A stretch of DNA of 64,000 bases from Candidatus Falkowbacteria bacterium. GTDB lineage: Bacteria; Patescibacteriota; Patescibacteriia; UBA11705. The stretch is taken from assembly GCA_003518055.1 (NCBI GenBank), contig DOZJ01000002.1:235097-299096 (forward strand), given 5' to 3'. Of this stretch, positions 19,018 to 52,725 are shown in pieces. The position numbers and the translations under genes are program-made. Positions within the stretch are counted from its first letter, which is position 1. Each line of letters starts with the position of its first letter. The notes under the pieces were generated by a model, which did not search any database, was not told the origin of the DNA, and worked only from the letters and a program-made list of their open reading frames with translations.

Positions 19018-19680
19018 TCAAAGGCACATACCCAGAACCTCACCACAGTCGTCGCTCGCCGGGCAATACCACATCTCTTCGAGACTGATGATGCAGCGTT
19101 TCTGAGCGCGGTTGTCCGGAGGTGTCAATGATTCAGGCGTCGGCGGAGTATCACCGCCGGTTACGTCGCCATGGTTGAAGCAGGGTTTCTCAATCTTGGT
19201 CGTCCGCAATGCACCAGAATCGTCAAAATACATGATGTCGATCAAACCGCAAAATTTGCCGCTGGTGAGAACCTTCAAGTCAACTTGATTTTGATAGGCG
19301 CTTGGCAGCGGGAATGACCGAGTCGAAACAATTTCATTGGTTCCGGGCATGTATTCAATGATTCGATGGAGCGCGTTATTATTCGTCTGCCAAGTGAATA
19401 GCAGCTTTGACTTTTCTTCGCCCCCACCGGTGCATTTGACCATCAACGCCGTGTCATCCGTGCCGTAGGGGTCAGCCGTGGTTTCTTCTGATAGGTTTGT
19501 CGACTCGGGCGGACAGAGAAGCATCGTATCGCCGGCAATCGGGGTGCTTTTCTTGCAGCCCAGAGAAAAAGCCACGAGTAGCAATGACAGAAACATTGTC
19601 GCGCGAATAAAATTTACTCGTTGTCTCGTCGTCATGTGGCCCCTCCGTTTGATGGTGATATGAACTCGATAATATAACAC
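19018..19680 (-). CDS. Predicted lipoprotein with a C-terminal Cys motif (GC-rich islet family)
   Basis: Lipobox LVAFSLGC after an N-terminal helix. The C-terminus YCPASDDCGEVLGMCL resembles WQCASDQSCGEMRGYCL of the 20647-21498 product. Confidence 0.55.
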   Translation of the reverse strand: MLYYRVHITIKRRGHMTTRQRVNFIRATMFLSLLLVAFSLGCKKSTPIAGDTMLLCPPESTNLSEETTADPYGTDDTALMVKCTGGGEEKSKLLFTWQTNNNALHRIIEYMPGTNEIVSTRSFPLPSAYQNQVDLKVLTSGKFCGLIDIMYFDDSGALRTTKIEKPCFNHGDVTGGDTPPTPESLTPPDNRAQKRCIISLEEMWYCPASDDCGEVLGMCL

Positions 19681-20207: not shown

Positions 20208-20493
20208 TGGTCTTATAGTCGATTAACAATCGGCTTTTTTGATTAAAATAATTTCGTTAATGTAAATTTCAAGCAGTCCGTGTGTTAAATAATTTAAACA
20301 GCTACATCCAAGCCAATACTATTTTTGTAAAATTTGCAGCGTCCGGTACCGCATGTTGGGTGGGTATATTTGTAATGTTTGTATTGATATGTAAATTTGT
20401 ATCCCAAGATTTGTAAATTACAAAACCCGCCAAATCTTTGACGGGTTGTCGAAGCGGCGCGTGGCGCCGCGGAGTTGGGGATATCAGACAAGA

Positions 20494-20637
20494 AAGAGGA
20501 TGAGGATCATGAGGCCGATCAGCGTGCCGATTCCCGAAAGGTGGATCAACATCACTGTCGCGTTAGTTTCCATCCTCAACTCGGCGAATGCTTGTTCGTG
20601 TTTTGTCATGTTTATCTCCCAGATTGCACAGCGTTAG
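20494..20637 (-). CDS. Candidate 47-aa hydrophobic peptide, below the ORF-track length cutoff
   Basis: Read on the minus strand: GGAG-N6-ATG, then MTKHEQAFAELRMETNATVMLIHLSGIGTLIGLMILILFLV-stop, followed by GC hairpins and a T-run (terminator-like). It starts 10 nt downstream of the upstream lipoprotein stop. Confidence 0.35.
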
Positions 20638-20646
20638 TGAACTTGG

Positions 20647-21498
20647 TCACTTGGGTGGAGCGGTCTTTCCGTCCCACGCGAGTTGGTCGAACATCGACTG
20701 CCAGAAGTCGTCTTTGTTTTCCGACTCGTCGACGTTCGGCTGCTGGGCGTCTGTTACGATCTCGGTCTCCGGCGCCAGGCAGTAGCCGCGCATTTCGCCG
20801 CAGCTCTGATCACTGGCGCATTGCCAGGTGACCCGGACTCCAGCGTCTTCACGCTGGCACAGAACCGGACCGACCATCTTAACGAGTTCGGCGGGGAGGT
20901 CGTCGTATTGTTCGCAGTCAATGTTGACTTTGAGTACGGAGAACTGCGAGATCCTGCGCTGCACGATCATGTTTCCGTGGCCGCAGATCAAACTCCCCAT
21001 GCTATCCCCGAGAGAGTACGTTCTTTCGAGCACGGTCTCGTGCTTCTCGACATCGAAATTGAATTGGGGATAAAGCTCGATGGTTCGAGTGACCACGCCG
21101 TTGTAATTCACGGCGTACTTGGTCTCGTACACGCGCTTCTCGTCCTTGTCGAAGCAGACGACTCGGTAGATCTTCTCGTTGTACTCATCCGGCGCCGTCA
21201 GCGTCTGGGTGCTCGTGCCTTCCGGACACGGCGGATGGATCTTCTGGATCGCTTCGGGCATCTCGGTCTGCGAGGTGACGCACCCCGACCCGAAGGTCGT
21301 GAGCAGGACGATGAACCCGAAGACGACCGCGGCCACGAAACAGCTGTACCACTCGTTCTTGCGCGTCATGATTTCATGTCCCTTTCCAAGGGGTGAATGG
21401 ATGACTAGAGACTGATTTAAGGAACTTAATTCACTATTATACCATATATTAAAGGAAAAATCAATAGTAACAGCCATTTTATAGCTTAGATTAGGCAA
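20647..21498 (-). CDS. Predicted lipoprotein, Cys-containing, GC-rich
   Basis: TM/lipobox LLTTFGSGC (the likely start is MTRKNEW, internal to the ORF). C-terminal CASDQSCGEMRGYC motif. GC content far above the genome background. The antisense ORF 20683-21396 is a GC artefact. Confidence 0.55.
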   Translation of the reverse strand: MPNLSYKMAVTIDFSFNIWYNSELSSLNQSLVIHSPLGKGHEIMTRKNEWYSCFVAAVVFGFIVLLTTFGSGCVTSQTEMPEAIQKIHPPCPEGTSTQTLTAPDEYNEKIYRVVCFDKDEKRVYETKYAVNYNGVVTRTIELYPQFNFDVEKHETVLERTYSLGDSMGSLICGHGNMIVQRRISQFSVLKVNIDCEQYDDLPAELVKMVGPVLCQREDAGVRVTWQCASDQSCGEMRGYCLAPETEIVTDAQQPNVDESENKDDFWQSMFDQLAWDGKTAPPK

Positions 21499-28096: not shown

Positions 28097-28178
28097 AAAA
28101 CGCCATAAAAAGAGTTCTCATTCGGAGAGCTCTTTTGTTATCTTGACGGTTTGCGCCAATTGATTTAAAATAAGCTGT

Positions 28179-28484
28179 TTGAACCCAAGAGGGAGCGGGA
28201 GGTTAGCCATGACTTTGGGACAGCTGCGTCGATTCATTACTGGTATTTTGGAAAAAGAAAATCAATATCCGCCGGCCCAATTTCAGCAGTTTTTGTTGTT
28301 TAGGGATGAGTTGATGATGGCGCTGGAGAATGATTTGGGGATAGTTAAGCGCCCCGGCGAGTCTTTTGACTCCTATTATCACAAGCTGGATCGCTATTCT
28401 TCGAGCTGGTCTCTGGGTTACTCCACGTCGCAGGTGGTCCGCAAAATGTCGGTTTTGATGGATGTCCCCGGCCCGGCTGGTTAA
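28179..28484 (+). CDS. Hypothetical protein (GC-rich islet)
   Basis: Likely start ATG 28209, preceded by GGGAGCGGGAGG. Confidence 0.4.
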   Translation: MNPRGSGRLAMTLGQLRRFITGILEKENQYPPAQFQQFLLFRDELMMALENDLGIVKRPGESFDSYYHKLDRYSSSWSLGYSTSQVVRKMSVLMDVPGPAG

Positions 28485-28681
28485 AAATTTCTCAAAGACG
28501 AAACCTCGTCTTTTTTTGTATTTATAGCTAAATAAGTGTAATTATTTCATTGTGGAGCTGCCCGCTACAAGCTAACAGCTGAAAGCTAGGAGGTGTAACG
28601 ATTGACTTTTTACATAAATTATGATATAATACTAAGTTACCAAATTGACAACTACCCGGCTGATTCCAGCCAACACGCCAC

Positions 28682-29464
28682 ATGGAGGCAAACATGCGTG
28701 CGATCCTGATGTCCGTTCTCGTTTCGTTCGTCGTCCTGACCGCCTGCAACCAGTCCGGGCCAGTGGAGTCGAACCAGCCCGGCACCAACAGCGACCAGCC
28801 GGCAGTCGACGACTCCGTCGTCGAGCCGGCCGAGGCGGTCGAGCCGTACATCGTGAGCGTCTGCTACGACACCCTCGACGTCCGCGCGCACCTCATCAAG
28901 GCCGAGCTGCGGTACCGCTACGACGACATGACCTACGAGACGGTCGTGTCGAGCGAGACGTCCGGCAACTGCGTCATCTTCGACGTGGACATGGCCCGGG
29001 TCGCCGAGGGCTTCCAGTTCACGCCTCACCCCTTCGACCTCATGCCCGATGGCACGGTCTTCGATCACGACTGGTACGAGGAAAAGCCGACGGCTTTTCT
29101 CGGCCGACGTGAACTGACGGTCGACCCCGTCATCGGTCAGGATCTTGTCCCCGGCGACTCGTGGTTTTTCGGTCAGATGAGCTGCGACAAGGAGATGCTC
29201 TTCACTCATCGCGGCTCCTGCTGGCAGTTCGGCGGCCATGGCTATCTGGAACTCATCGACTGTGTGTGCGGCGAGATCAATGATGTGCCGGTGGTCAAGT
29301 GCCGATTCATCAGCCGAGAGCGCGACGACGAGACCATGGTCGAGGAGTACGACCTTGAATTCGCCTCACACGGATGCATGATCCACGAGTGCGATGGTGT
29401 CCAGTGCTCAAACCGCCAGTACACCTGCGTGCAGGGAGAGTGCGACTACTCTCAGCCCCTCTAA
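28682..29464 (+). CDS. Predicted lipoprotein, Cys-rich C-terminus, GC-rich
   Basis: SD GGAGG. Lipobox VVLTAC. The C-terminal half is Cys-rich (CDKEMLFTHRGSCWQ ... CVCGE ... HGCMIHECDGVQCSNRQYTCVQGEC). The local GC content makes the overlapping ORFs 28645-29112 and 28652-29239 artefacts. Confidence 0.55.
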   Translation: MEANMRAILMSVLVSFVVLTACNQSGPVESNQPGTNSDQPAVDDSVVEPAEAVEPYIVSVCYDTLDVRAHLIKAELRYRYDDMTYETVVSSETSGNCVIFDVDMARVAEGFQFTPHPFDLMPDGTVFDHDWYEEKPTAFLGRRELTVDPVIGQDLVPGDSWFFGQMSCDKEMLFTHRGSCWQFGGHGYLELIDCVCGEINDVPVVKCRFISRERDDETMVEEYDLEFASHGCMIHECDGVQCSNRQYTCVQGECDYSQPL

Positions 29465-29686
29465 CCCCCTGTTCATTCCTACCGACTTCGGATAAATTCC
29501 CAAATTTTCACATTGAGACGTGTAAATCGCGTCTCTTTATTTTTGATTTAAAAACATCACAATTCATGGTGTTGTTTTTTTTACCAAGATCAGACGCCGT
29601 ATATTATTAGTAATTGATCCGCCCGATTAAATATGATTTTGAAAAATAAATTCTCAAGTATGACTTGAGATTTAATATTATTATCC

Positions 29687-31674: not shown

Positions 31675-34600
31675 TTGCTTATGGCCTATGAAGTCTCGGC
31701 TGTTTCAACGCTGGGAAATAATCACGAACACCGAGAAAATTCAACTGAAAAAATAACCAAGCCCGAGGCCGGTCTCGAGCGTGATATTTTGGCACTCAAC
31801 CAAAAAGTAGAAGCTGAGTTTCGTCGAGTCAAGCAAGCTTTGGATCGAGTTGTGGCCGGATCTTTGGTCGAGATAGCTCCCAGTCAGCCGCGAGCTGATG
31901 TTGTTTTTGATTCAATCAGGCAGGATCTGGAATCAATGAAACAATCAATGACCGATATCACCGCCATGAAATCACCGGATGTTTTGGCCGCTCAGTTGAC
32001 GGAGATCAATCAGAAGCTGGCGGAGTACAGTGGGTGGCAGGAACAGCAAGCTGAAGCTGCCGCAGCCTTGTCGTGGGAGTTGGAAAACCAACAAACAAAA
32101 ATTGCCGACCTTGAAGTAGCGTTGGAATCGGAGCGACAAAGAAATTTTTTTGTTAGACCGTTTAGAGAAAAAAACCGTCAGCGACTGGCTGCTGCTATCG
32201 ATGAGGCGAACAAAGTCAAAACCGCGTTATACGCCCGGCGTCAGGAAATCAAGCATCAAATTCATCAGCTGCAAGATTCATTGTATGAATTAGACAATCT
32301 TCGCCGTGATTTTGCGCCTCAGACATTAAAACTGAGTTTGGAGCAAGTAAAACAAAATTATTTGGAGCTGCAGTCCAAGCTGACGTCATCGGAAGCCAAA
32401 CAACAGATGAACCAATACTTAATTGAGAATGAAGTCCGGCCTGATCTCGATCGGGCTGTAGCTGATGGCGAAATTACCGAGGCCGCGGCATCAGAGTTTA
32501 TTCAACTTCTTTCCGCTGAGGTTGTTCAGGGGTTCACCAATTTGGTTTTTGGGATGTCACGTGAAGTCGGAGATGAAATTCAGCACCGTAATGAGCGGTT
32601 TCGCCGGCTGGAACAAAAAAAACCGACCTATATTTTTGAAACCTTACGGGCCAAAATCAGCGACCAATCAAGAGGGGTGGCTCCCGACGCTTATTTTAAT
32701 CCGATTATCGCTTATTTTTTGCGTAATTTATATCGCCGGCACACGTCGGAGCTCAGCTCCTCCGCCGCGGTTTTGAGCCAGACCGGTTGGATTACTTATG
32801 ATCATATTGTTGACGATGCAGACCGTGGTTTTGATTTTGAATTAGATAATCAGTCGGTTTTGCCGGCCGCGCGAAGTTTGGTCCAATCGGAGGGGCTTAT
32901 ACGGCTTAGATCGGTCGGACGCTTTTTGATCGATTCCGGTGTATTAACGCCGGCAGAATTCGAGGCGGAGCGCCAAAAAATGTATCGCGAGATTCTGGAT
33001 CACAATTTATCACCGGAGCCGAGCGATGATAAGTACGATGAAATTAATCGCGGAGCCAAAAAATTAGAAGAACTCAGTGATGTTCGACTGGTGCCCGAGC
33101 TGCTCACAAAAATTCAAGATCAAGCATATGATTCCAAAGACCCGATTCACGATCATTGCTTGGGCAAGTTGACTGATCTTTTTTCCTCCCTGCTTGGATC
33201 AGCCAAACCGGAAGAGGTATCAGCTGTTATGCAGAAATTGGAACCCCAGCAGAGAGAACTGATCTCGCTGATCATGGATAAAACGTCTTTTGCTCATACT
33301 TTTGGTAAAATCAGGAACGTTGTCAGGCATGGCGGCGAAGTTCTAGCCAAGGAAAAGCGTTTCCGGTCTTTGAAAGAACTTGGTTGGGAAACGCCGGATT
33401 TATTTGCTTTGTATGAAATGCGGTTGGCGCGTGGGCGCGATCTGAATTTACTGGTTAAAAGCGCGAATGATCTCGGTGAAAATCCCAAAGAAGTTATTAC
33501 TGCTCAGCTGGGAACAATCAAACGGAAATGGTTCAACCTGTCCGATGTTGATCGCCGCCAAGCAGTTGAGCTGCTGGCTCCGATCTTGGGGGAGAAACCA
33601 AAAGATTTATTTTTGACTTTTGTTCATGATCGGTTCAAACCGGCGGAGAGTCCGACCGACAAAGATCCTCTCGTCGCTTATTTGGCGACTATGCATGAGT
33701 ATGATGAATTGTTGGCGGTGATTGAGCTTTTTGATCAGGACAAAGAGAATTTTATTCTGCGGAATTTGTCCGTAATCGTTGAGCGAATGGTCTTGACCCA
33801 CGTGCGGCCGGAAACCCAAAAACGCGCCATTATCCGAATCGGGCAGGATCTCGGGTGGTCTGAAGCCCAAGCGATTGCCATCTGTTTGCCCCAGATTCTC
33901 CAATCTCAGTTGAAGTTTGAACGCAACACGGTCAAATCAAAGGGGGTTCAGGAATATCTGAAATTTTTTATCGCCGGTCAAGATTATGGCGAGCTGGTCG
34001 CCAAATTACTTGGCTTTCATCTGCAGGTTGAGGCGGAAAATTTAGATCGCGCCACTCGGATGGCCGCCGCTGTCGACACACCGGAGATGGTTGAGGCGAA
34101 AATAAAACAGGCCTCCGGTTTGGCCATGTTGGCTATCGACGGCGCTGAGCAATTTACCGGCCGGCTGGTGGCTGAGTATCGCGGCGGCCGTGAAGATGAT
34201 GAAGTTGTCTCGCGGTTAATGTCCCTCTATTCTTTTCTCCGTGATTTTGAAAGCCGGCAGAATCATCATGAATATACCACCAAACTGGAAGCTATCGTTG
34301 TCGGCGGCAAGATCAGCGGACTTCAATCAATGTATGAATCGGTCAGCGCGAATTTTCAACAGATGGTGAATGAAGCACCGCGGCTTTTCGCTGACGTGGC
34401 TGATCGGGAAATGTGGATTGAATTGGTTGGTCCCGACCGCATCAAGGAATTTCTTGATCGGCTGCCCAAGTCGTCGGATGAAAAACGCAACGCCCTTACT
34501 CACAATCAATATGATCGCACCTCAATTTTCCTGTCTTCCCTGATGAGCAATCTTAAATTTTCTCCTTTATTTGAAGGTGAAAGTGAAGTGGTTCTCGATC

Positions 34601-36150
34601 AGGACGATTTCTCCGTTATTTCCAGTTTTGTGGAAAAATTTGGGCTGTCCAATACCCCATTGTTATTTCGTTATTTTCGTAATTTGGTCCGACTAGAAAA
34701 ATCAGGCACGCCGCTGCCAGCGGAGCAGGTGGCCGAGGGCATAATTTCGCTGGAAGTCTTAGATCAGAAAATGAGAAAAATTAAATCGTCTTTGTTATCG
34801 TCCAAGCCGATTATGGACATTGATATAAATCAAATGACCGCAGTCGAATTGGAAATGTTCAGCTTCCTCACCGGCAAAAGCCGTCACCGCTTTGATAGTG
34901 GTCGGCCGAGCTTGGAGCAGATTATCCGTGATTGGCAGTCAAATCGTGAGGCCGGTTCGGTAGCTGAAAAGCCGGATGCTTACGGTGAATTTACGGAAAC
35001 CATTCCGCGAGTAAAAATTATATTTGATAAAGAAAAAGTGCGCTCCAGTTTTGAGATTATTCAACAAGATATTTTGGCAGCTATGAAAGATTCGGCTGAT
35101 ATATCATCGGTCACTCCGCGCGCTCAAGCGGTTCTCAATCAAAAAATCAGCGATCTGCGGGAGATTTTGGCGCGAAAACCGGATAACAAATTCATTGCCC
35201 AGCAGCTCAGCCACTATGAAATGATGGCCGGTCGAGTCAACTCGGCGGCGGATATTGATAGCTTAATCGAAGTTTTGGTTTTGGCTGAACGCGGCTTTGC
35301 TGCCAAAAGTGAACTCAGTTCGATTATCAGAGAACTTTTATTCCGAAAATTATTTACGGTTAATTTCTCCGGTGATGCCATCCGCCAGATGGCCGCGACT
35401 GTTGATGGCGATGTGACCGGAGTGGGTATTCTAAATGTAATTAATTTGGTTGACCGATTTGTCAAAGACCATGTATTGAATTTAGCTAAACATAACGAAG
35501 AAAATTATTGGAGTGCCGGTGCTTGGCGGGCAATCAATGACGCCAAAGACAATTCCAAACAGGTTGATGTTACAAAAATTTTCAAAACCGAACTGGACGT
35601 GCTCCGTGCCGAGGTCGGCAACTTTATTTTGGAGGATTCTGATAAGCCGGTTGAGGTCAAGATGATTCCGGATCGAGGTTTGGTGGGGGAGATGTCCGGT
35701 TATTTGGCTGATGTATGTTACACCAAGGAATACCCGCTGCTCACCGCCTATCCGAATATGGTGCCATATAAATTTGTGGCTGAAGACAAAGCATCAAAAG
35801 AGAGAAGTTTGGTTGGTTCAGTTTTGGTTTTTGAGTTGACGGCCAAGGATGGTGATAAGGTAATGCTGGTCCGCGGATTTGATGTTCCGAATGAAAGTGA
35901 TTTTGATATCGGAACGTTTATTGAAAAATTCTTAGATAATTTGGAACCGGTCGCCAGACAGCGCGGTATTAACAAAATTTTGGTTCCGGGCAGCAGCGGC
36001 GCCATCTCGAATTATGGGATGACCCTATCATACATTCAATCAAAATTTATCAATGACAAAAGTCCGGTTTCGCTCGATGGGTTTTTTAATTTTAATGGCT
36101 ATAACCTGACTGATAATTGCTATCTGGCGCGGACAATTGAGATTAAATAA
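31675..36150 (+). CDS. Giant protein A (1491 aa) of a three-member paralogous family, with a shared C-terminal domain
   Basis: No signal peptide. The N-terminal third is coiled-coil rich. The C-terminal about 230 aa align with giant B (IPDRGLVGEMSGYLADVCYT / GSVLVFE / ...RTIEIK versus IPDRGFAGELSGYYGEACYT / GSVLFIE / ...RTIK). The likely ATG is at 31681. Confidence 0.7.
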   Translation: MLMAYEVSAVSTLGNNHEHRENSTEKITKPEAGLERDILALNQKVEAEFRRVKQALDRVVAGSLVEIAPSQPRADVVFDSIRQDLESMKQSMTDITAMKSPDVLAAQLTEINQKLAEYSGWQEQQAEAAAALSWELENQQTKIADLEVALESERQRNFFVRPFREKNRQRLAAAIDEANKVKTALYARRQEIKHQIHQLQDSLYELDNLRRDFAPQTLKLSLEQVKQNYLELQSKLTSSEAKQQMNQYLIENEVRPDLDRAVADGEITEAAASEFIQLLSAEVVQGFTNLVFGMSREVGDEIQHRNERFRRLEQKKPTYIFETLRAKISDQSRGVAPDAYFNPIIAYFLRNLYRRHTSELSSSAAVLSQTGWITYDHIVDDADRGFDFELDNQSVLPAARSLVQSEGLIRLRSVGRFLIDSGVLTPAEFEAERQKMYREILDHNLSPEPSDDKYDEINRGAKKLEELSDVRLVPELLTKIQDQAYDSKDPIHDHCLGKLTDLFSSLLGSAKPEEVSAVMQKLEPQQRELISLIMDKTSFAHTFGKIRNVVRHGGEVLAKEKRFRSLKELGWETPDLFALYEMRLARGRDLNLLVKSANDLGENPKEVITAQLGTIKRKWFNLSDVDRRQAVELLAPILGEKPKDLFLTFVHDRFKPAESPTDKDPLVAYLATMHEYDELLAVIELFDQDKENFILRNLSVIVERMVLTHVRPETQKRAIIRIGQDLGWSEAQAIAICLPQILQSQLKFERNTVKSKGVQEYLKFFIAGQDYGELVAKLLGFHLQVEAENLDRATRMAAAVDTPEMVEAKIKQASGLAMLAIDGAEQFTGRLVAEYRGGREDDEVVSRLMSLYSFLRDFESRQNHHEYTTKLEAIVVGGKISGLQSMYESVSANFQQMVNEAPRLFADVADREMWIELVGPDRIKEFLDRLPKSSDEKRNALTHNQYDRTSIFLSSLMSNLKFSPLFEGESEVVLDQDDFSVISSFVEKFGLSNTPLLFRYFRNLVRLEKSGTPLPAEQVAEGIISLEVLDQKMRKIKSSLLSSKPIMDIDINQMTAVELEMFSFLTGKSRHRFDSGRPSLEQIIRDWQSNREAGSVAEKPDAYGEFTETIPRVKIIFDKEKVRSSFEIIQQDILAAMKDSADISSVTPRAQAVLNQKISDLREILARKPDNKFIAQQLSHYEMMAGRVNSAADIDSLIEVLVLAERGFAAKSELSSIIRELLFRKLFTVNFSGDAIRQMAATVDGDVTGVGILNVINLVDRFVKDHVLNLAKHNEENYWSAGAWRAINDAKDNSKQVDVTKIFKTELDVLRAEVGNFILEDSDKPVEVKMIPDRGLVGEMSGYLADVCYTKEYPLLTAYPNMVPYKFVAEDKASKERSLVGSVLVFELTAKDGDKVMLVRGFDVPNESDFDIGTFIEKFLDNLEPVARQRGINKILVPGSSGAISNYGMTLSYIQSKFINDKSPVSLDGFFNFNGYNLTDNCYLARTIEIK

Positions 36151-36153
36151 AAT

Positions 36154-36951
36154 ATGATTTTAATTTATTTGTTTATTATTTTATTCGGTTTGGCAATCGG
36201 GAGTTTTCTCAATGTGCTGATTTTCCGTTTGCCGGAGCCAGCGTCAAAGTGGATAAAATTTAAACGTTCAGTTTGTCGATTCTGCCGCAAGGTACTCACG
36301 CCACTGGAATTGATTCCGGTGTTTAGCTTCTTATCGCAGAAAGGCCGATGCCGGTCGTGCGATGAAAAGTTATCATGGCAATATCCGGCCGTGGAGCTGT
36401 CAACTGCGGTCATATTTTTGCTGCTGGCATTTATTCATCTCTCTTCTTTGTCCGATATTTCAGCCGAAAGCGTTGCCTTCCTAATCCGCGATATGTTCAT
36501 TGTATCGGTTCTGATTCTGGTTTTTGTTATCGATGTCAAGCATTTCTTGATCCTTAATAAAGTTATCTATCCGGCTTTGGTTGTGGTTGCTTTGTTCAAT
36601 ATTTATCTGTTGGATTTTAATCTAAAGAAAATACTGGGGATTGTAATCGGCGCCGTGATCGGCTTTTCCTTTTTTGCCTTCCAGTATTTTTTTTCCAAAG
36701 GCAAGTGGGTCGGCGGCGGCGATATGAAATTCGGCGCCTTGATCGGCTTGGCGCTCGGCTGGCAGGGGATGATCACCACCTTGGTTTTGGCTTACGTTGG
36801 CGGCGCCATATTCGCCGTGGCGTTGTTGATATCGGGCAAGGCCAAGTTCGGCGCCAAACTGCCAATGGCCGCGTTTCTGGCTCCGGCTGCTTTGGCGGTT
36901 TTGCTCTACGGCGAAAATATTTGGTCTTGGTACTTTAATTTATTTATTTGA
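36154..36951 (+). CDS. pilD: Prepilin peptidase (A24 family, type IV pilin leader peptidase/N-methyltransferase)
   Basis: N-terminal Cys-x-x-Cys ... Cys-x-x-Cys zinc motif (CRFCRKVL ... CRSCDEKL), multiple TM helices, and a catalytic Asp region GGGDMKFGALIG. Confidence 0.85.
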   Translation: MILIYLFIILFGLAIGSFLNVLIFRLPEPASKWIKFKRSVCRFCRKVLTPLELIPVFSFLSQKGRCRSCDEKLSWQYPAVELSTAVIFLLLAFIHLSSLSDISAESVAFLIRDMFIVSVLILVFVIDVKHFLILNKVIYPALVVVALFNIYLLDFNLKKILGIVIGAVIGFSFFAFQYFFSKGKWVGGGDMKFGALIGLALGWQGMITTLVLAYVGGAIFAVALLISGKAKFGAKLPMAAFLAPAALAVLLYGENIWSWYFNLFI

Positions 36952-37054: not shown

Positions 37055-37465
37055 ATGGATAACCAAACAATAATAAAAAAAGACAATGGGACGGCTTACA
37101 TCCAAGATCCATTATCTAAGATAGTTATTGGGATTTGTTACGAGATTTTCAATTCTATTGGTCCGGGGGTGCGCGAAAAATATTATGAAGACGCTGTAGA
37201 ACACAAATTCAAGAAACGGGGGGTGATTTATCAGAGGCAATTGAAAGTGGACATAAAACTTGACGGTGAAAAAATAGGTTTTCGTCGATTGGATTTTTTG
37301 GTGGAAAAACGTCTCGTTGTGGAATTGAAAATTGGTAATTATTTGTCTCAAGCTGAGTTCAATCAAGTAAAAGAGTATTTAAAAATAAATAATTTGAAAT
37401 TAGGTTTAATTATTCTATTTACCACTCATGGTGTTAGAGTCCGTCGGGTGGTGAATTTATCTTAG
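37055..37465 (+). CDS. GxxExxY protein (PD-(D/E)XK nuclease superfamily)
   Basis: Matches the GxxExxY family signature (GVREKYYEDAVEHKFKKRG) and the conserved later E-x-K-like region (RRLDFLVEKRLVVELK). 136 aa. Confidence 0.7.
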   Translation: MDNQTIIKKDNGTAYIQDPLSKIVIGICYEIFNSIGPGVREKYYEDAVEHKFKKRGVIYQRQLKVDIKLDGEKIGFRRLDFLVEKRLVVELKIGNYLSQAEFNQVKEYLKINNLKLGLIILFTTHGVRVRRVVNLS

Positions 37466-51056: not shown

Positions 51057-52211
51057 ATGTGTAAAAAACTTTTGTTTTTTGGCCTTCTAATCTTGCTTTT
51101 GCCGTTAAGTTGGGCTAGCTCTCAGACTTACAACTACGACGTCGGCCTAACCGGTCAGGATATTTTTTTCTCCCGGCCTCTCGATGAGATCGTCGAACTC
51201 CAGCCGATTAGAATTTACGCCCGCATTGTCAATTGGGGCAATGAAGATGTGTCCGCCAGCGTGGCTTTTTATACCGGAGGAGAATTGATTGGCACATCGC
51301 AAGAAATCTCTGTTCGGGCCGGCGGTTTGGCTGATGAGGTTTTTGTCGATTGGCGCGTGCCCACCAATGATTTTTATATTATCGCCAAGATTCAAAACGT
51401 TAATCCCGGCGATCAAAATTTATTGAATAATGAAGCTCAGTCCGTTTTAATTACCCCAAAGGGCGATATGGATCGCGACGGTATTGCCGATGAATATGAC
51501 ACTGATGATGACAACGACGGCCTGACGACCGACCAAGAAAATCAGGCCGGCACTGATCCCTTGAACGCTGACAGCGATGGCGATGGTGTCAACGACAAGG
51601 ATGATTTCTATCCGACCGACAAGAATCGCACCGTCGAGACGGTTGTCGCGCCAGAACCGGAGCCGGAAGTGACCCCTGAACCTGAGGTCACCCCTGAGGT
51701 CATCTCGCAGCCGGAGGCTGAAACCTCGGCCGTTTCGACCGAAACCGATCGTGAACCGATTGTTCCTGATCCTGACCGAGAAAATGTGGTTATAAATCCC
51801 GATGAGGTTGCTCATCCCGAGATTCCGGTCGAGCAGAAGTTGCAGGTTGCGAGCCGTGTCACCGCCGTTACGATTGAACCGAAATATATTGACTGGGGTG
51901 AATATCAATATACTTTTACGACGGACGACTCGGCGGCCGATGTGGAACGAATGAGTTTTGTGTGGGAATTTGATGATGGTTTTAGCATGAAACGCAATGG
52001 TGTCCATGCCTTCACCCGCCCCGGCACGCACTTCGTCAAACTGTCCGTTGACGGCCCGTACGGCAATACAATTTCCGATACAGCCGTCATTTCGGTTCCG
52101 TTTTGGTCACTGTCAAATCGGTACCTCTGGATTATCGGTGGCGCGATTATCGTCTTAATTATTATCTCGATTATATTTTTACGATCAAAAAAAGATGAGC
52201 ACGAGGGGTAA
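51057..52211 (+). CDS. Secreted protein with Ca-binding thrombospondin-type-3-like Asp repeats, a PKD-like domain and a C-terminal TM anchor
   Basis: Signal peptide. Repeats [40 protein letters not shown]-like segment [37 protein letters not shown]-terminal helix followed by a basic tail. Confidence 0.6.
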
Positions 52212-52725
52212 GATTATTATAATTTTAATGCTGATCTTGGTTTCTTGTCCGGCCACCGCCTTGGCCGCCGATATTTTTGATAACCATTCGCAGGTGGTGA
52301 TCCGTTATGACAAGATTGACTGGCAGACCTATCGTTTTTATCCGTTGATGAATGGCTCAGTCGTCCCGACGGCGTATGAGTGGGCTATTGACAACAGTCA
52401 GGTGTATTACAGTTCATCAGCTCAAATTTTTTTCCCATCCGGCGACCATACCGTTTCTCTCACCGCGATAGACTCTGAAGGCAATCGCAAGTATGACAGT
52501 GTAAAAATTAATGTTACTTTTTGGAGTCTACACAACAATTATCTGCTCTGGTTTTTGTATGCTGTGGTCGTGGTGATGATTATGTATTATTGGCTGGTTA
52601 AAATAATTTACGCGTTCAATCGCCGCCAAGTTTCGAAGGAAGTCCGGGTGTTTATGGATATTTTTGATGAGAATGGTCACGCCGCCGCTTTGGTCGATAA
52701 ACTCAAACGTCAGTTGGTCAAATAG
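52195..52725 (+). CDS. PKD-like domain membrane-anchored protein (paralogue of the previous gene)
   Basis: Signal peptide. A PKD-like [37 protein letters not shown]. The FWSLxNxYL plus TM tail is homologous to the end of the upstream gene. It overlaps that gene by 17 nt. Confidence 0.55.

Follow-up and report, generated by a model that had tools for sequence, protein, structure and literature searches.

Does a sharply bounded GC-rich islet in a bacterial genome necessarily indicate a recently imported gene? This question is raised by a locus in a stretch of 64,000 nucleotides (GC content 45.8%) of contig DOZJ01000002.1, which belongs to a groundwater genome of Candidatus Falkowbacteria, a member of the candidate phyla radiation (CPR, Patescibacteria). 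In the following, this complete stretch is called the window. Determined for 100-nt segments, the GC content rises to 55-72% between positions ~28650 and ~29470, with a sharp step at both ends, and the islet matches an open reading frame (ORF) on the plus strand (28682-29464), which we name lipo3. The initial annotation had described the product as a lipoprotein related to two lipoproteins encoded in a first islet (islet-1; genes lipo1 and lipo2) and accompanied by a partner gene, and it had implied a foreign origin, for example from an actinobacterial host. The analysis presented here leads to a different view: probably, lipo3 is a genuine, vertically inherited CPR lipoprotein gene with a maintained high GC content at third codon positions (GC3), which is unrelated to the islet-1 lipoproteins and has no partner.

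The lipo3 gene and its syntenic ortholog

The coding sequence (CDS) of lipo3 extends on the plus strand from 28694 to 29464 and specifies a prolipoprotein of 256 residues with 13 cysteines and an isoelectric point of 4.3. From the initial annotation, the ORF and its lipoprotein character could be retained, and only the start had to be moved: ATG 28694 is a likelier initiation site than 28682, and the strong Shine-Dalgarno sequence that had been noted, GGAGG at 28684-28688, lies 5 nt upstream of this codon. The GC content, which had been put near 60%, was measured as 0.617 for the CDS; the values for first, second and third codon positions are 0.62, 0.385 and 0.85, respectively. This three-periodic pattern (GC3 > GC1 > GC2) fits the plus frame, and the GC3 value is 5.5 standard deviations (SD) above that of the other ~60 ORFs of the window (0.51 +/- 0.06). 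Third positions are mainly occupied by C (0.54) and G (0.30), and A contributes only 5%. Glycine, alanine, arginine and proline (the GARP amino acids) are not enriched in the product, so that the GC effect is chiefly synonymous. At lipo3, GC skew is -0.05 to -0.07, i.e. the coding strand is C-rich, and G-runs do not occur. Both here and in the ortholog introduced below, the GC excess ends near the CDS borders and does not affect the flanks.

Contigs identical to this locus are contained in groundwater assemblies of PRJNA292723, in JGI 3300009031 and in Logan. Altogether, five independent assemblies are 100% identical across lipo3, which speaks against a chimeric origin of the locus. The sole protein record of the 256-residue product is Logan P0001, which originates from a contig of 1.1 kb, and a word-indexed search of 5.8e9 proteins retrieved only lipo3 itself. 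An exhaustive HMMER comparison with 1.84e9 representative proteins identified one homolog, P0003 (290 residues, 38% identity, E 7e-39), which is encoded on JGI contig Ga0066639_10000430 (L086) of a related CPR genome. Scanning the JGI metagenome DNA with lipo3 alone gave no match; with a profile of the two sequences, the same relative was found in this DNA, and neither the protein database nor the viral contigs contributed further members. A scan of genome contigs anchored on GAPDH returned distant genomes only (<=58% identity), which are uninformative for synteny. The lipo3 family thus appears to be new and minimal: it comprises two species, seems restricted to one clade and has no known domain.

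P0003 occupies the syntenic position in its genome. Upstream of it, L086 harbors in this order the genes of a tRNA-U5 methyltransferase, a small transmembrane protein, a lipo1 homolog, a methyltransferase, glutamate racemase, an M50 protease and two proteins of ~230 residues. Immediate neighbors common to both genomes are the M50 protease and the genes for 230 and 231 residues on the upstream side and GAPDH on the downstream side. Between the two genomes, the neighboring proteins are 52-80% identical; with values of 36% and 33%, lipo3 and lipo1 are the most diverged members of the block.

The correspondence of the two loci is also evident at the DNA level. The sigma-70-type promoter of lipo3 (28602-28630, plus strand) consists of TTGACT-17 nt-TATAAT with an extended -10 TG and 11 of 12 consensus matches; it has a near base-for-base match at L086 9919-9947. 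A conserved TTGACAAC box (28645-28652) precedes a hairpin in the 5' untranslated region (5'UTR), GGCUG-AUUC-CAGCC at 28658-28671, which is part of the minimum free energy structure of the leaders of both species; its counterpart in L086, at the aligned position, reads GGCU-GAAA-AGCC. In addition, the arrangement TGGAGG-spacer-ATG is conserved, and downstream of the gene the stem GAGACG...CGTCTC of an intrinsic terminator (29515-29535; an 8-bp GC-rich stem followed by a T-run, fold z = -3.5) is kept at L086 10903-10924. Based on synteny, conserved regulatory DNA and conserved cysteines, we regard the whole lipo3 unit as orthologous and vertically inherited, and 28694-29464 most plausibly represents a genuine, monocistronic gene of the plus strand. 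The 5'UTR hairpin may contribute to mRNA stabilization; for the folding of the whole lipo3 mRNA, a z-value of -2.4 resulted from a comparison with 20 shuffles only. Genes for tRNAs are absent from the window, and neither significant repeats on both sides of lipo3 nor relevant Rfam elements were found.

The compositional bias is found in both orthologs. The GC content of L086 is 41%, and the GC3 values of the neighbors of P0003 range from 0.33 to 0.44 (genomic value 0.40), whereas the P0003 gene has a GC content of 0.58 and a GC3 of 0.76, which corresponds to +4.6 SD. The codon regime follows the third-position order C > G >> T > A. The ratio CAG:CAA is 11:0 in lipo3 and 20:0 in P0003, AAG:AAA is 4:0 and 6:0, respectively; GTC and CTC are favored, TTA is absent from both genes, and TTG is absent from lipo3 and occurs twice in P0003. 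Accordingly high is the correlation of relative synonymous codon usage (RSCU) between lipo3 and P0003 (r = 0.80) and between lipo3 and lipo2 (r = 0.86). Versus the genomic bulk, this regime gives correlations of only 0.17 and -0.14, and lipo2 gives 0.18.

In order to assess the age of this bias, the synonymous sites are most informative. At identical degenerate residues of lipo3 and P0003, the fraction of same codons is 0.529, compared to 0.527 expected from independent draws; for GAPDH, the corresponding values are 0.42 and 0.40. Since observed and expected same-codon use agree, synonymous sites are saturated between the orthologs. Under these circumstances an ancestral foreign composition would have decayed, and as GC3 is high in both genes, the bias must have been held in each lineage. 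Following the standard reasoning on amelioration, we infer that a gene-specific force maintains the GC3 bias in each of the two lineages. The lipo3 locus would then be a clean counter-example to the rule that atypical GC content signals recent horizontal transfer. In the literature we found, no CPR precedent for such a gene is described.

The GC3-rich outliers of ~70 other loci showed no lipoprotein pattern in a sample that is small and unsuited to this question. A third GC3 outlier of the genome is located ~5.8 kb before the window start (L091 17448-17855, minus strand). It is an ORF of 135 residues with a GC3 of 0.74, without signal peptide or Pfam hit, and its GC excess is limited to ~200 nt.

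The predicted lipo3 protein and the islet-1 family

The lipo3 product begins with MRAILMSVLVSFVVLTAC and ends with ...CVQGECDYSQPL. Residues 1-17 and Cys 18 (28694-28747) constitute a predicted lipoprotein signal peptide with the lipobox L-T-A-C. The PROSITE rule PS51257 demands a K or R within the first seven residues, at least six uncharged residues, the pattern [LIVMFWSTAG]2-[LIVMFYSTAGCQ]-[AGS]-C and a Cys at position 15-35; the segments which agree with it are VLVSFVVLTAC with Cys 18 in lipo3 and IASTAMAMGGC with Cys 35 in P0003. In addition, residues 3-20 of lipo3 weakly match the entericidin B lipoprotein signal.

The signal peptide is followed by an acidic tether rich in Pro, Asp, Gln and Ser (residues 19-50; 28748-28843), for which the predicted local distance difference test (pLDDT) is below 50. 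Its length varies between the orthologs; the alignment of lipo3 and P0003 gives a difference of 25 residues and low conservation in this part. Best conserved is a beta-rich N-terminal globular domain (residues ~51-142; 28844-29119), which contains Cys 57 and Cys 93. The Cys-rich C-terminal region (residues 160-256; 29171-29461) was modeled with low confidence; it comprises ten cysteines, eight of which are conserved in the ortholog. In agreement with the Cys-rich C-terminal half described in the initial annotation, 10 of the 13 cysteines are located within residues 164-250. Besides the lipobox residue Cys 18, lipo3 possesses 12 cysteines. Conserved between lipo3 and P0003 are the lipobox Cys and 10 of these 12; Cys 233 and Cys 238 are specific to lipo3 and missing in the ortholog. 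Searches in Pfam, NCBIfam, PHROGs and PDB sequences gave nothing meaningful for lipo3 or its neighbors. In kind, lipo3 is an ordinary lineage-specific lipoprotein.

These elements can be combined to a model of expression and localization. The near-consensus sigma-70 promoter would give rise to an mRNA with the short conserved 5' hairpin and the GGAGG sequence, and the intrinsic terminator would close the unit. Following Sec export, Lgt would transfer a diacylglyceryl group to Cys 18, and signal peptidase II would cleave the precursor. The mature product would be an acidic protein of ~239 residues, anchored at the outer face of the cell membrane, whose acidic Pro/Asp/Gln tether of 30-50 residues would present the beta-rich domain and a C-terminal region locked by five to six disulfides. 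Faster divergence combined with retained cysteines would be the pattern of an exposed envelope protein facing hosts, phages or surfaces. Judged from the sequence, export of lipo3, lipidation at Cys 18, disulfide formation and exposure on the cell surface are all plausible. The protein may have a role toward hosts, phages or substrates, and adhesion or recognition is conceivable; alternatively, it may be an abundant envelope component, a role suggested by the near-consensus promoter and the strong Shine-Dalgarno sequence.

Of the two islet-1 genes, lipo1 (19018-19635, minus strand) encodes an 8-Cys lipoprotein with a syntenic ortholog in L086 (4360-4980, minus strand; 33% identity). The gene lipo2 (20647-21369, minus strand) encodes an 8-Cys lipoprotein of 240 residues; its GC3 is 0.80, and it has no ortholog in this relative. 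A neighboring lipoprotein is recorded at NCBI as 'TPA: hypothetical protein DF272_02240 [Candidatus Falkowbacteria bacterium]'. The initial annotation had listed the two ORFs as 19018-19680 and 20647-21498 and had pointed to a common C-terminal motif. This relationship was confirmed and turned out to cover more than the motif: BLASTP aligned lipo1 and lipo2 with E 1e-5 over ~200 residues including 8 Cys, and the terminal motif W-x-C-x5-CG[EK]-x2-G-x-CL as well as the Cys spacing are common to lipo1, lipo2 and the L086 homolog. The two proteins can be considered full-length paralogs, which apparently belong to a clade-restricted 8-Cys family.

Directly downstream of lipo2, an ORF of 41 residues (MTKHEQAFAELRMETNATVMLIHLSGIGTLIGLMILILFLV) is located at 20484-20609 on the minus strand. 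It has a GGGAG Shine-Dalgarno sequence, a C-terminal hydrophobic helix and a terminator at 20447-20424, and it may be co-transcribed with lipo2.

Alternative explanations of the islet

Two alternatives concern the identity of the gene. In the initial annotation, lipo3 was said to resemble the lipo2 product in architecture and C-terminal Cys spacing. If lipo3 were a very diverged paralog of lipo1 and lipo2, this would account for the common gross layout (lipobox, tether, Cys-containing domain), for the acidic character of the lipo3 and islet-1 proteins, for a codon regime equal to that of lipo2 and for a short CGE tripeptide which follows a Cys in all three. When the three lipoproteins were compared, however, lipo1 and lipo2 matched each other, whereas lipo3 joined them at the lipobox alone, an outcome which the initial annotation itself had named as speaking against the relationship. 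BLASTP comparisons of lipo3 with the islet-1 proteins gave E 0.44 and 2.4. By means of hhalign, a probability of 0.4% was determined for the lipo1 and lipo2 profile versus lipo3, and of 1.2% for a three-sequence islet-1 profile versus the two-sequence lipo3 profile, with only 13 signal/lipobox columns aligned. Moreover, islet-1 proteins have 8 Cys at fixed spacing and the terminal motif, whereas lipo3 has 12 Cys at a different spacing and lacks the motif, and for each family there is a separate syntenic ortholog in L086. Common descent is highly improbable on these grounds. Thus, from the proposed kinship of three lipoproteins, the relation within the islet-1 pair remains; lipo3 appears not to be homologous to them, and the link between the two islets would be the anomalous codon regime and not protein homology. 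According to the second alternative, the authentic gene lies on the minus strand (ORF 28652-29239, 195 residues), or the locus is dual-coding. NCBI (HCC22985.1, DF272_02290), JGI and ENA indeed call an ORF of 195 or 185 residues on this strand and omit the lipoprotein, and the antisense frame is open in both species over 237 and 304 codons, respectively. This frame is codon-aligned with the sense frame, which means that its stops correspond to sense TTA, CTA and TCA; it stays open because these codons are nearly absent if A occupies 5% of third positions. As a gene, the ORF would have an atypical GC1 of 0.85 and a GC3 of 0.62. Compared to the ortholog by means of tblastn, the similarity of the antisense frame is far weaker than that of the sense frame (E 3e-9 versus 2e-44), and the sense-synonymous sites, which are the first codon positions of the antisense frame, are not conserved above composition, as follows from the same-codon fractions given above; hence there is no constraint. 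In addition, it is the plus strand to which promoter, Shine-Dalgarno sequence, signal peptide and terminator belong. A coding function of the minus strand is so improbable as to be hardly credible. Frame alignment and synonymous-site test support the opinion of the initial annotation that the antisense ORFs (28652-29239 and 28645-29112) are spurious by-products of high GC content, and we take the plus strand to be the coding one.

Two further alternatives concern the origin of the composition. If the islet had only recently been transferred from a donor of high GC content, such as an actinobacterial host, and were not yet ameliorated, this would be in agreement with the sharp composition boundaries, with the orphan character of lipo3 and with a codon usage like that of a genome of ~60-65% GC (AAG, GAG, CAG, GTC, CTC instead of AAA, GAA, CAA, GTT, TTG). 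Such a transfer is contradicted by the presence of a syntenic ortholog, whose promoter, UTR, Shine-Dalgarno sequence and terminator are homologous as well, in a species whose housekeeping proteins are 52-80% identical, and by synonymous sites which are saturated, yet GC3-rich in both orthologs. Furthermore, no homolog from non-CPR organisms exists among the 1.84e9 representatives, and the borders are free of tRNA genes, flanking repeats or mobility genes, the nearest transposase-like gene being 9 kb away. We therefore regard an import as very unlikely and this reading as already largely refuted; with homologs confined to one related CPR genome, the foreign origin implied initially gives way to vertical inheritance. 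A different cause would be at work if lipo3 were a contingency or antigenic-variation surface gene, in which recombination or GC-biased gene conversion raises the GC content as in the vls locus of Lyme Borrelia. The vls cassettes have a GC content of 49%, compared to 28.6% for the genome; this is conserved across species and has been attributed to a conversion mechanism (PMC11499132). Several properties match this GC-rich precedent: lipo3 encodes a predicted surface lipoprotein and ranks with the most rapidly evolving genes in the syntenic block, both species retain the GC excess with no constraint on individual synonymous sites, and lipo2, an unrelated fast-evolving lipoprotein gene, exhibits the same codon regime. 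On the other hand, a search of ~125 kb surrounding lipo3 (window, L090 and L091, at the level of DNA and protein) and of protein databases revealed neither silent cassettes nor paralogs or repeats. The coding strand is C-rich and not G-rich, without vls-like GC skew or G-runs, the GC excess ends with the CDS and does not extend into the flanks, the product has no surplus of GARP amino acids, and the five assemblies are free of sequence variation. Altogether, a contingency gene is a rather unlikely explanation. A target of a diversity-generating retroelement was considered as a separate candidate and rejected; there was no repeat of the CDS in the ~125 kb and no reverse transcriptase among the genes scanned.

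We therefore prefer a vertically inherited lipoprotein gene with maintained GC3, and it is important to note what weighs against this interpretation. As lipo3 and P0003 are the only family members, all statistics on conservation derive from a single pairwise comparison, and five identical assemblies leave zero population variation for tests of recombination, of selection or of the ratio of nonsynonymous to synonymous substitutions (dN/dS). Most public gene callers chose the minus strand at this locus. Among the window ORFs scanned, neither Lgt nor LspA nor a disulfide-forming system was seen. The AlphaFold2 models are poor, with a pLDDT of 41 for the single sequence and of 50 for the two-sequence alignment, and fold searches with these models gave nothing significant; for both reasons, an interpretation of the predicted lipo3 structure as beta-sandwich or adhesin-like is weak. 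Finally, the candidate causes of the GC3 bias remain two, namely selection or GC-biased gene conversion at a surface-protein locus prone to recombination; both are compatible with a constraint that acts on composition but not on individual sites. Selection on some feature of the mRNA or of translation in a strongly promoted secreted protein is slightly favored over gene conversion because the bias is synonymous and confined to the CDS.

A more far-reaching proposal, which we put forward only tentatively and consider doubtful, is a dedicated GC3-rich codon regime for unrelated, fast-evolving, Cys-rich lipoproteins (lipo3, its ortholog and lipo2), which is opposite to genomic usage and persists past synonymous saturation. 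If true, it would hint at an unrecognized gene-specific mechanism in CPR bacteria. Options would be targeted GC-biased conversion or hyper-recombination at envelope loci, selection for mRNA stability, or a slow, secretion-coupled translation of multi-disulfide proteins.

Unusual about lipo3 are the inherited codon anomaly, which it has in common with the unrelated lipo2, and the wrong strand in all major public annotations. At this position, public annotation holds a meaningless antisense protein in place of a real surface lipoprotein; in CPR genomes of intermediate or low GC content, GC-rich genes may systematically be called wrongly in this manner and hence escape surveys at the protein level. 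CPR bacteria live attached to other cells, and their envelope proteins are largely uncharacterized. A strongly promoted, clade-specific lipoprotein that is predicted to be disulfide-locked is a reasonable candidate for studies of host or phage interactions.

Neighboring genes and comparison with known systems

The gene upstream of lipo3, which the initial annotation had considered a partner of the lipoprotein, is an ORF spanning 28179-28484; with the probable start at 28209, it encodes 91 residues (28209-28484, plus strand). It lies outside the GC islet, has a genome-typical GC3 of 0.59 and is equipped with a separate promoter-like site (28143-28171) and a separate terminator (28494-28513). 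A family match was not found in Pfam, NCBIfam, PHROGs or PDB searches, and there is no counterpart at the orthologous locus of L086. With separate signals, normal GC3 and absence from the relative, the assignment as a partner had to be abandoned; the ORF appears to be an independent, non-conserved neighbor.

Downstream of GAPDH, both genomes contain the gene of a domain-less protein of ~1,500 residues, which follows directly in the window (31675-36150, plus strand) and four genes later in L086 (15483-19997). The two proteins show no similarity (BLASTP E 1.1), which signals either extreme divergence or non-orthologous replacement. A gene of the PD-(D/E)XK nuclease family (37055-37465, plus strand) and an IS200-like Y1 transposase gene (38066-38662, plus strand) are flanked by the genes of a prepilin peptidase (36154-36951) and an NAD-dependent DNA ligase (38975-40990). 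The gene at 51057-52211 (plus strand) specifies a secreted protein that combines bacterial TSP3 repeats with a PKD domain; the next ORF (52195-52725, plus strand; 176 residues) has a lipobox-like signal, and the pair represents putative envelope genes with normal GC3. The final 1.3 kb of the window, which are AT-rich (33-35% GC), form the 5' part of a type V CRISPR-Cas module, which extends from ~62670-64000 onward (L090 11020-17119). Its Cas12a-like protein is split into two ORFs, one with REC1 (723 residues) and one with Cpf1_PI-like and RuvC parts (718 residues), followed by Cas4, Cas1 and Cas2.

Comparing lipo3 with known systems, the closest correspondence is with bacterial membrane lipoproteins as defined by PS51257 and the Lgt/LspA pathway. 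The basic n-region, the uncharged h-region, the L-T-A-C lipobox and the flexible tether are alike; in contrast, the mature domain could not be assigned to a family in Pfam, NCBIfam, PHROGs or PDB. With the islet-1 family, lipo3 has in common that the proteins are acidic, Cys-containing, clade-restricted and fast-evolving, that each is separately syntenic in the relative, and that lipo2 is GC3-rich, too. The two differ in number and spacing of Cys residues and in the C-terminal motif, and no sequence or profile similarity exists past the lipobox.

Genomic islands acquired by horizontal transfer resemble the lipo3 locus with respect to the sharp GC step and a codon usage foreign to the resident genome. 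Unlike these islands, lipo3 is syntenic and by all indications vertically inherited, lacks mobility features and donor homologs, and has a bias which outlasts synonymous saturation. The vlsE/vls system (PMC11499132) is similar in that a surface lipoprotein has a G+C content far above that of the genome, which is kept between species despite divergence and hence implies active maintenance. The Borrelia locus additionally exhibits a strongly positive GC skew with G-runs, and silent cassettes for gene conversion are arrayed next to it, whereas the coding strand of lipo3 is C-rich, cassettes or paralogs were not found, and the proteins are unrelated.

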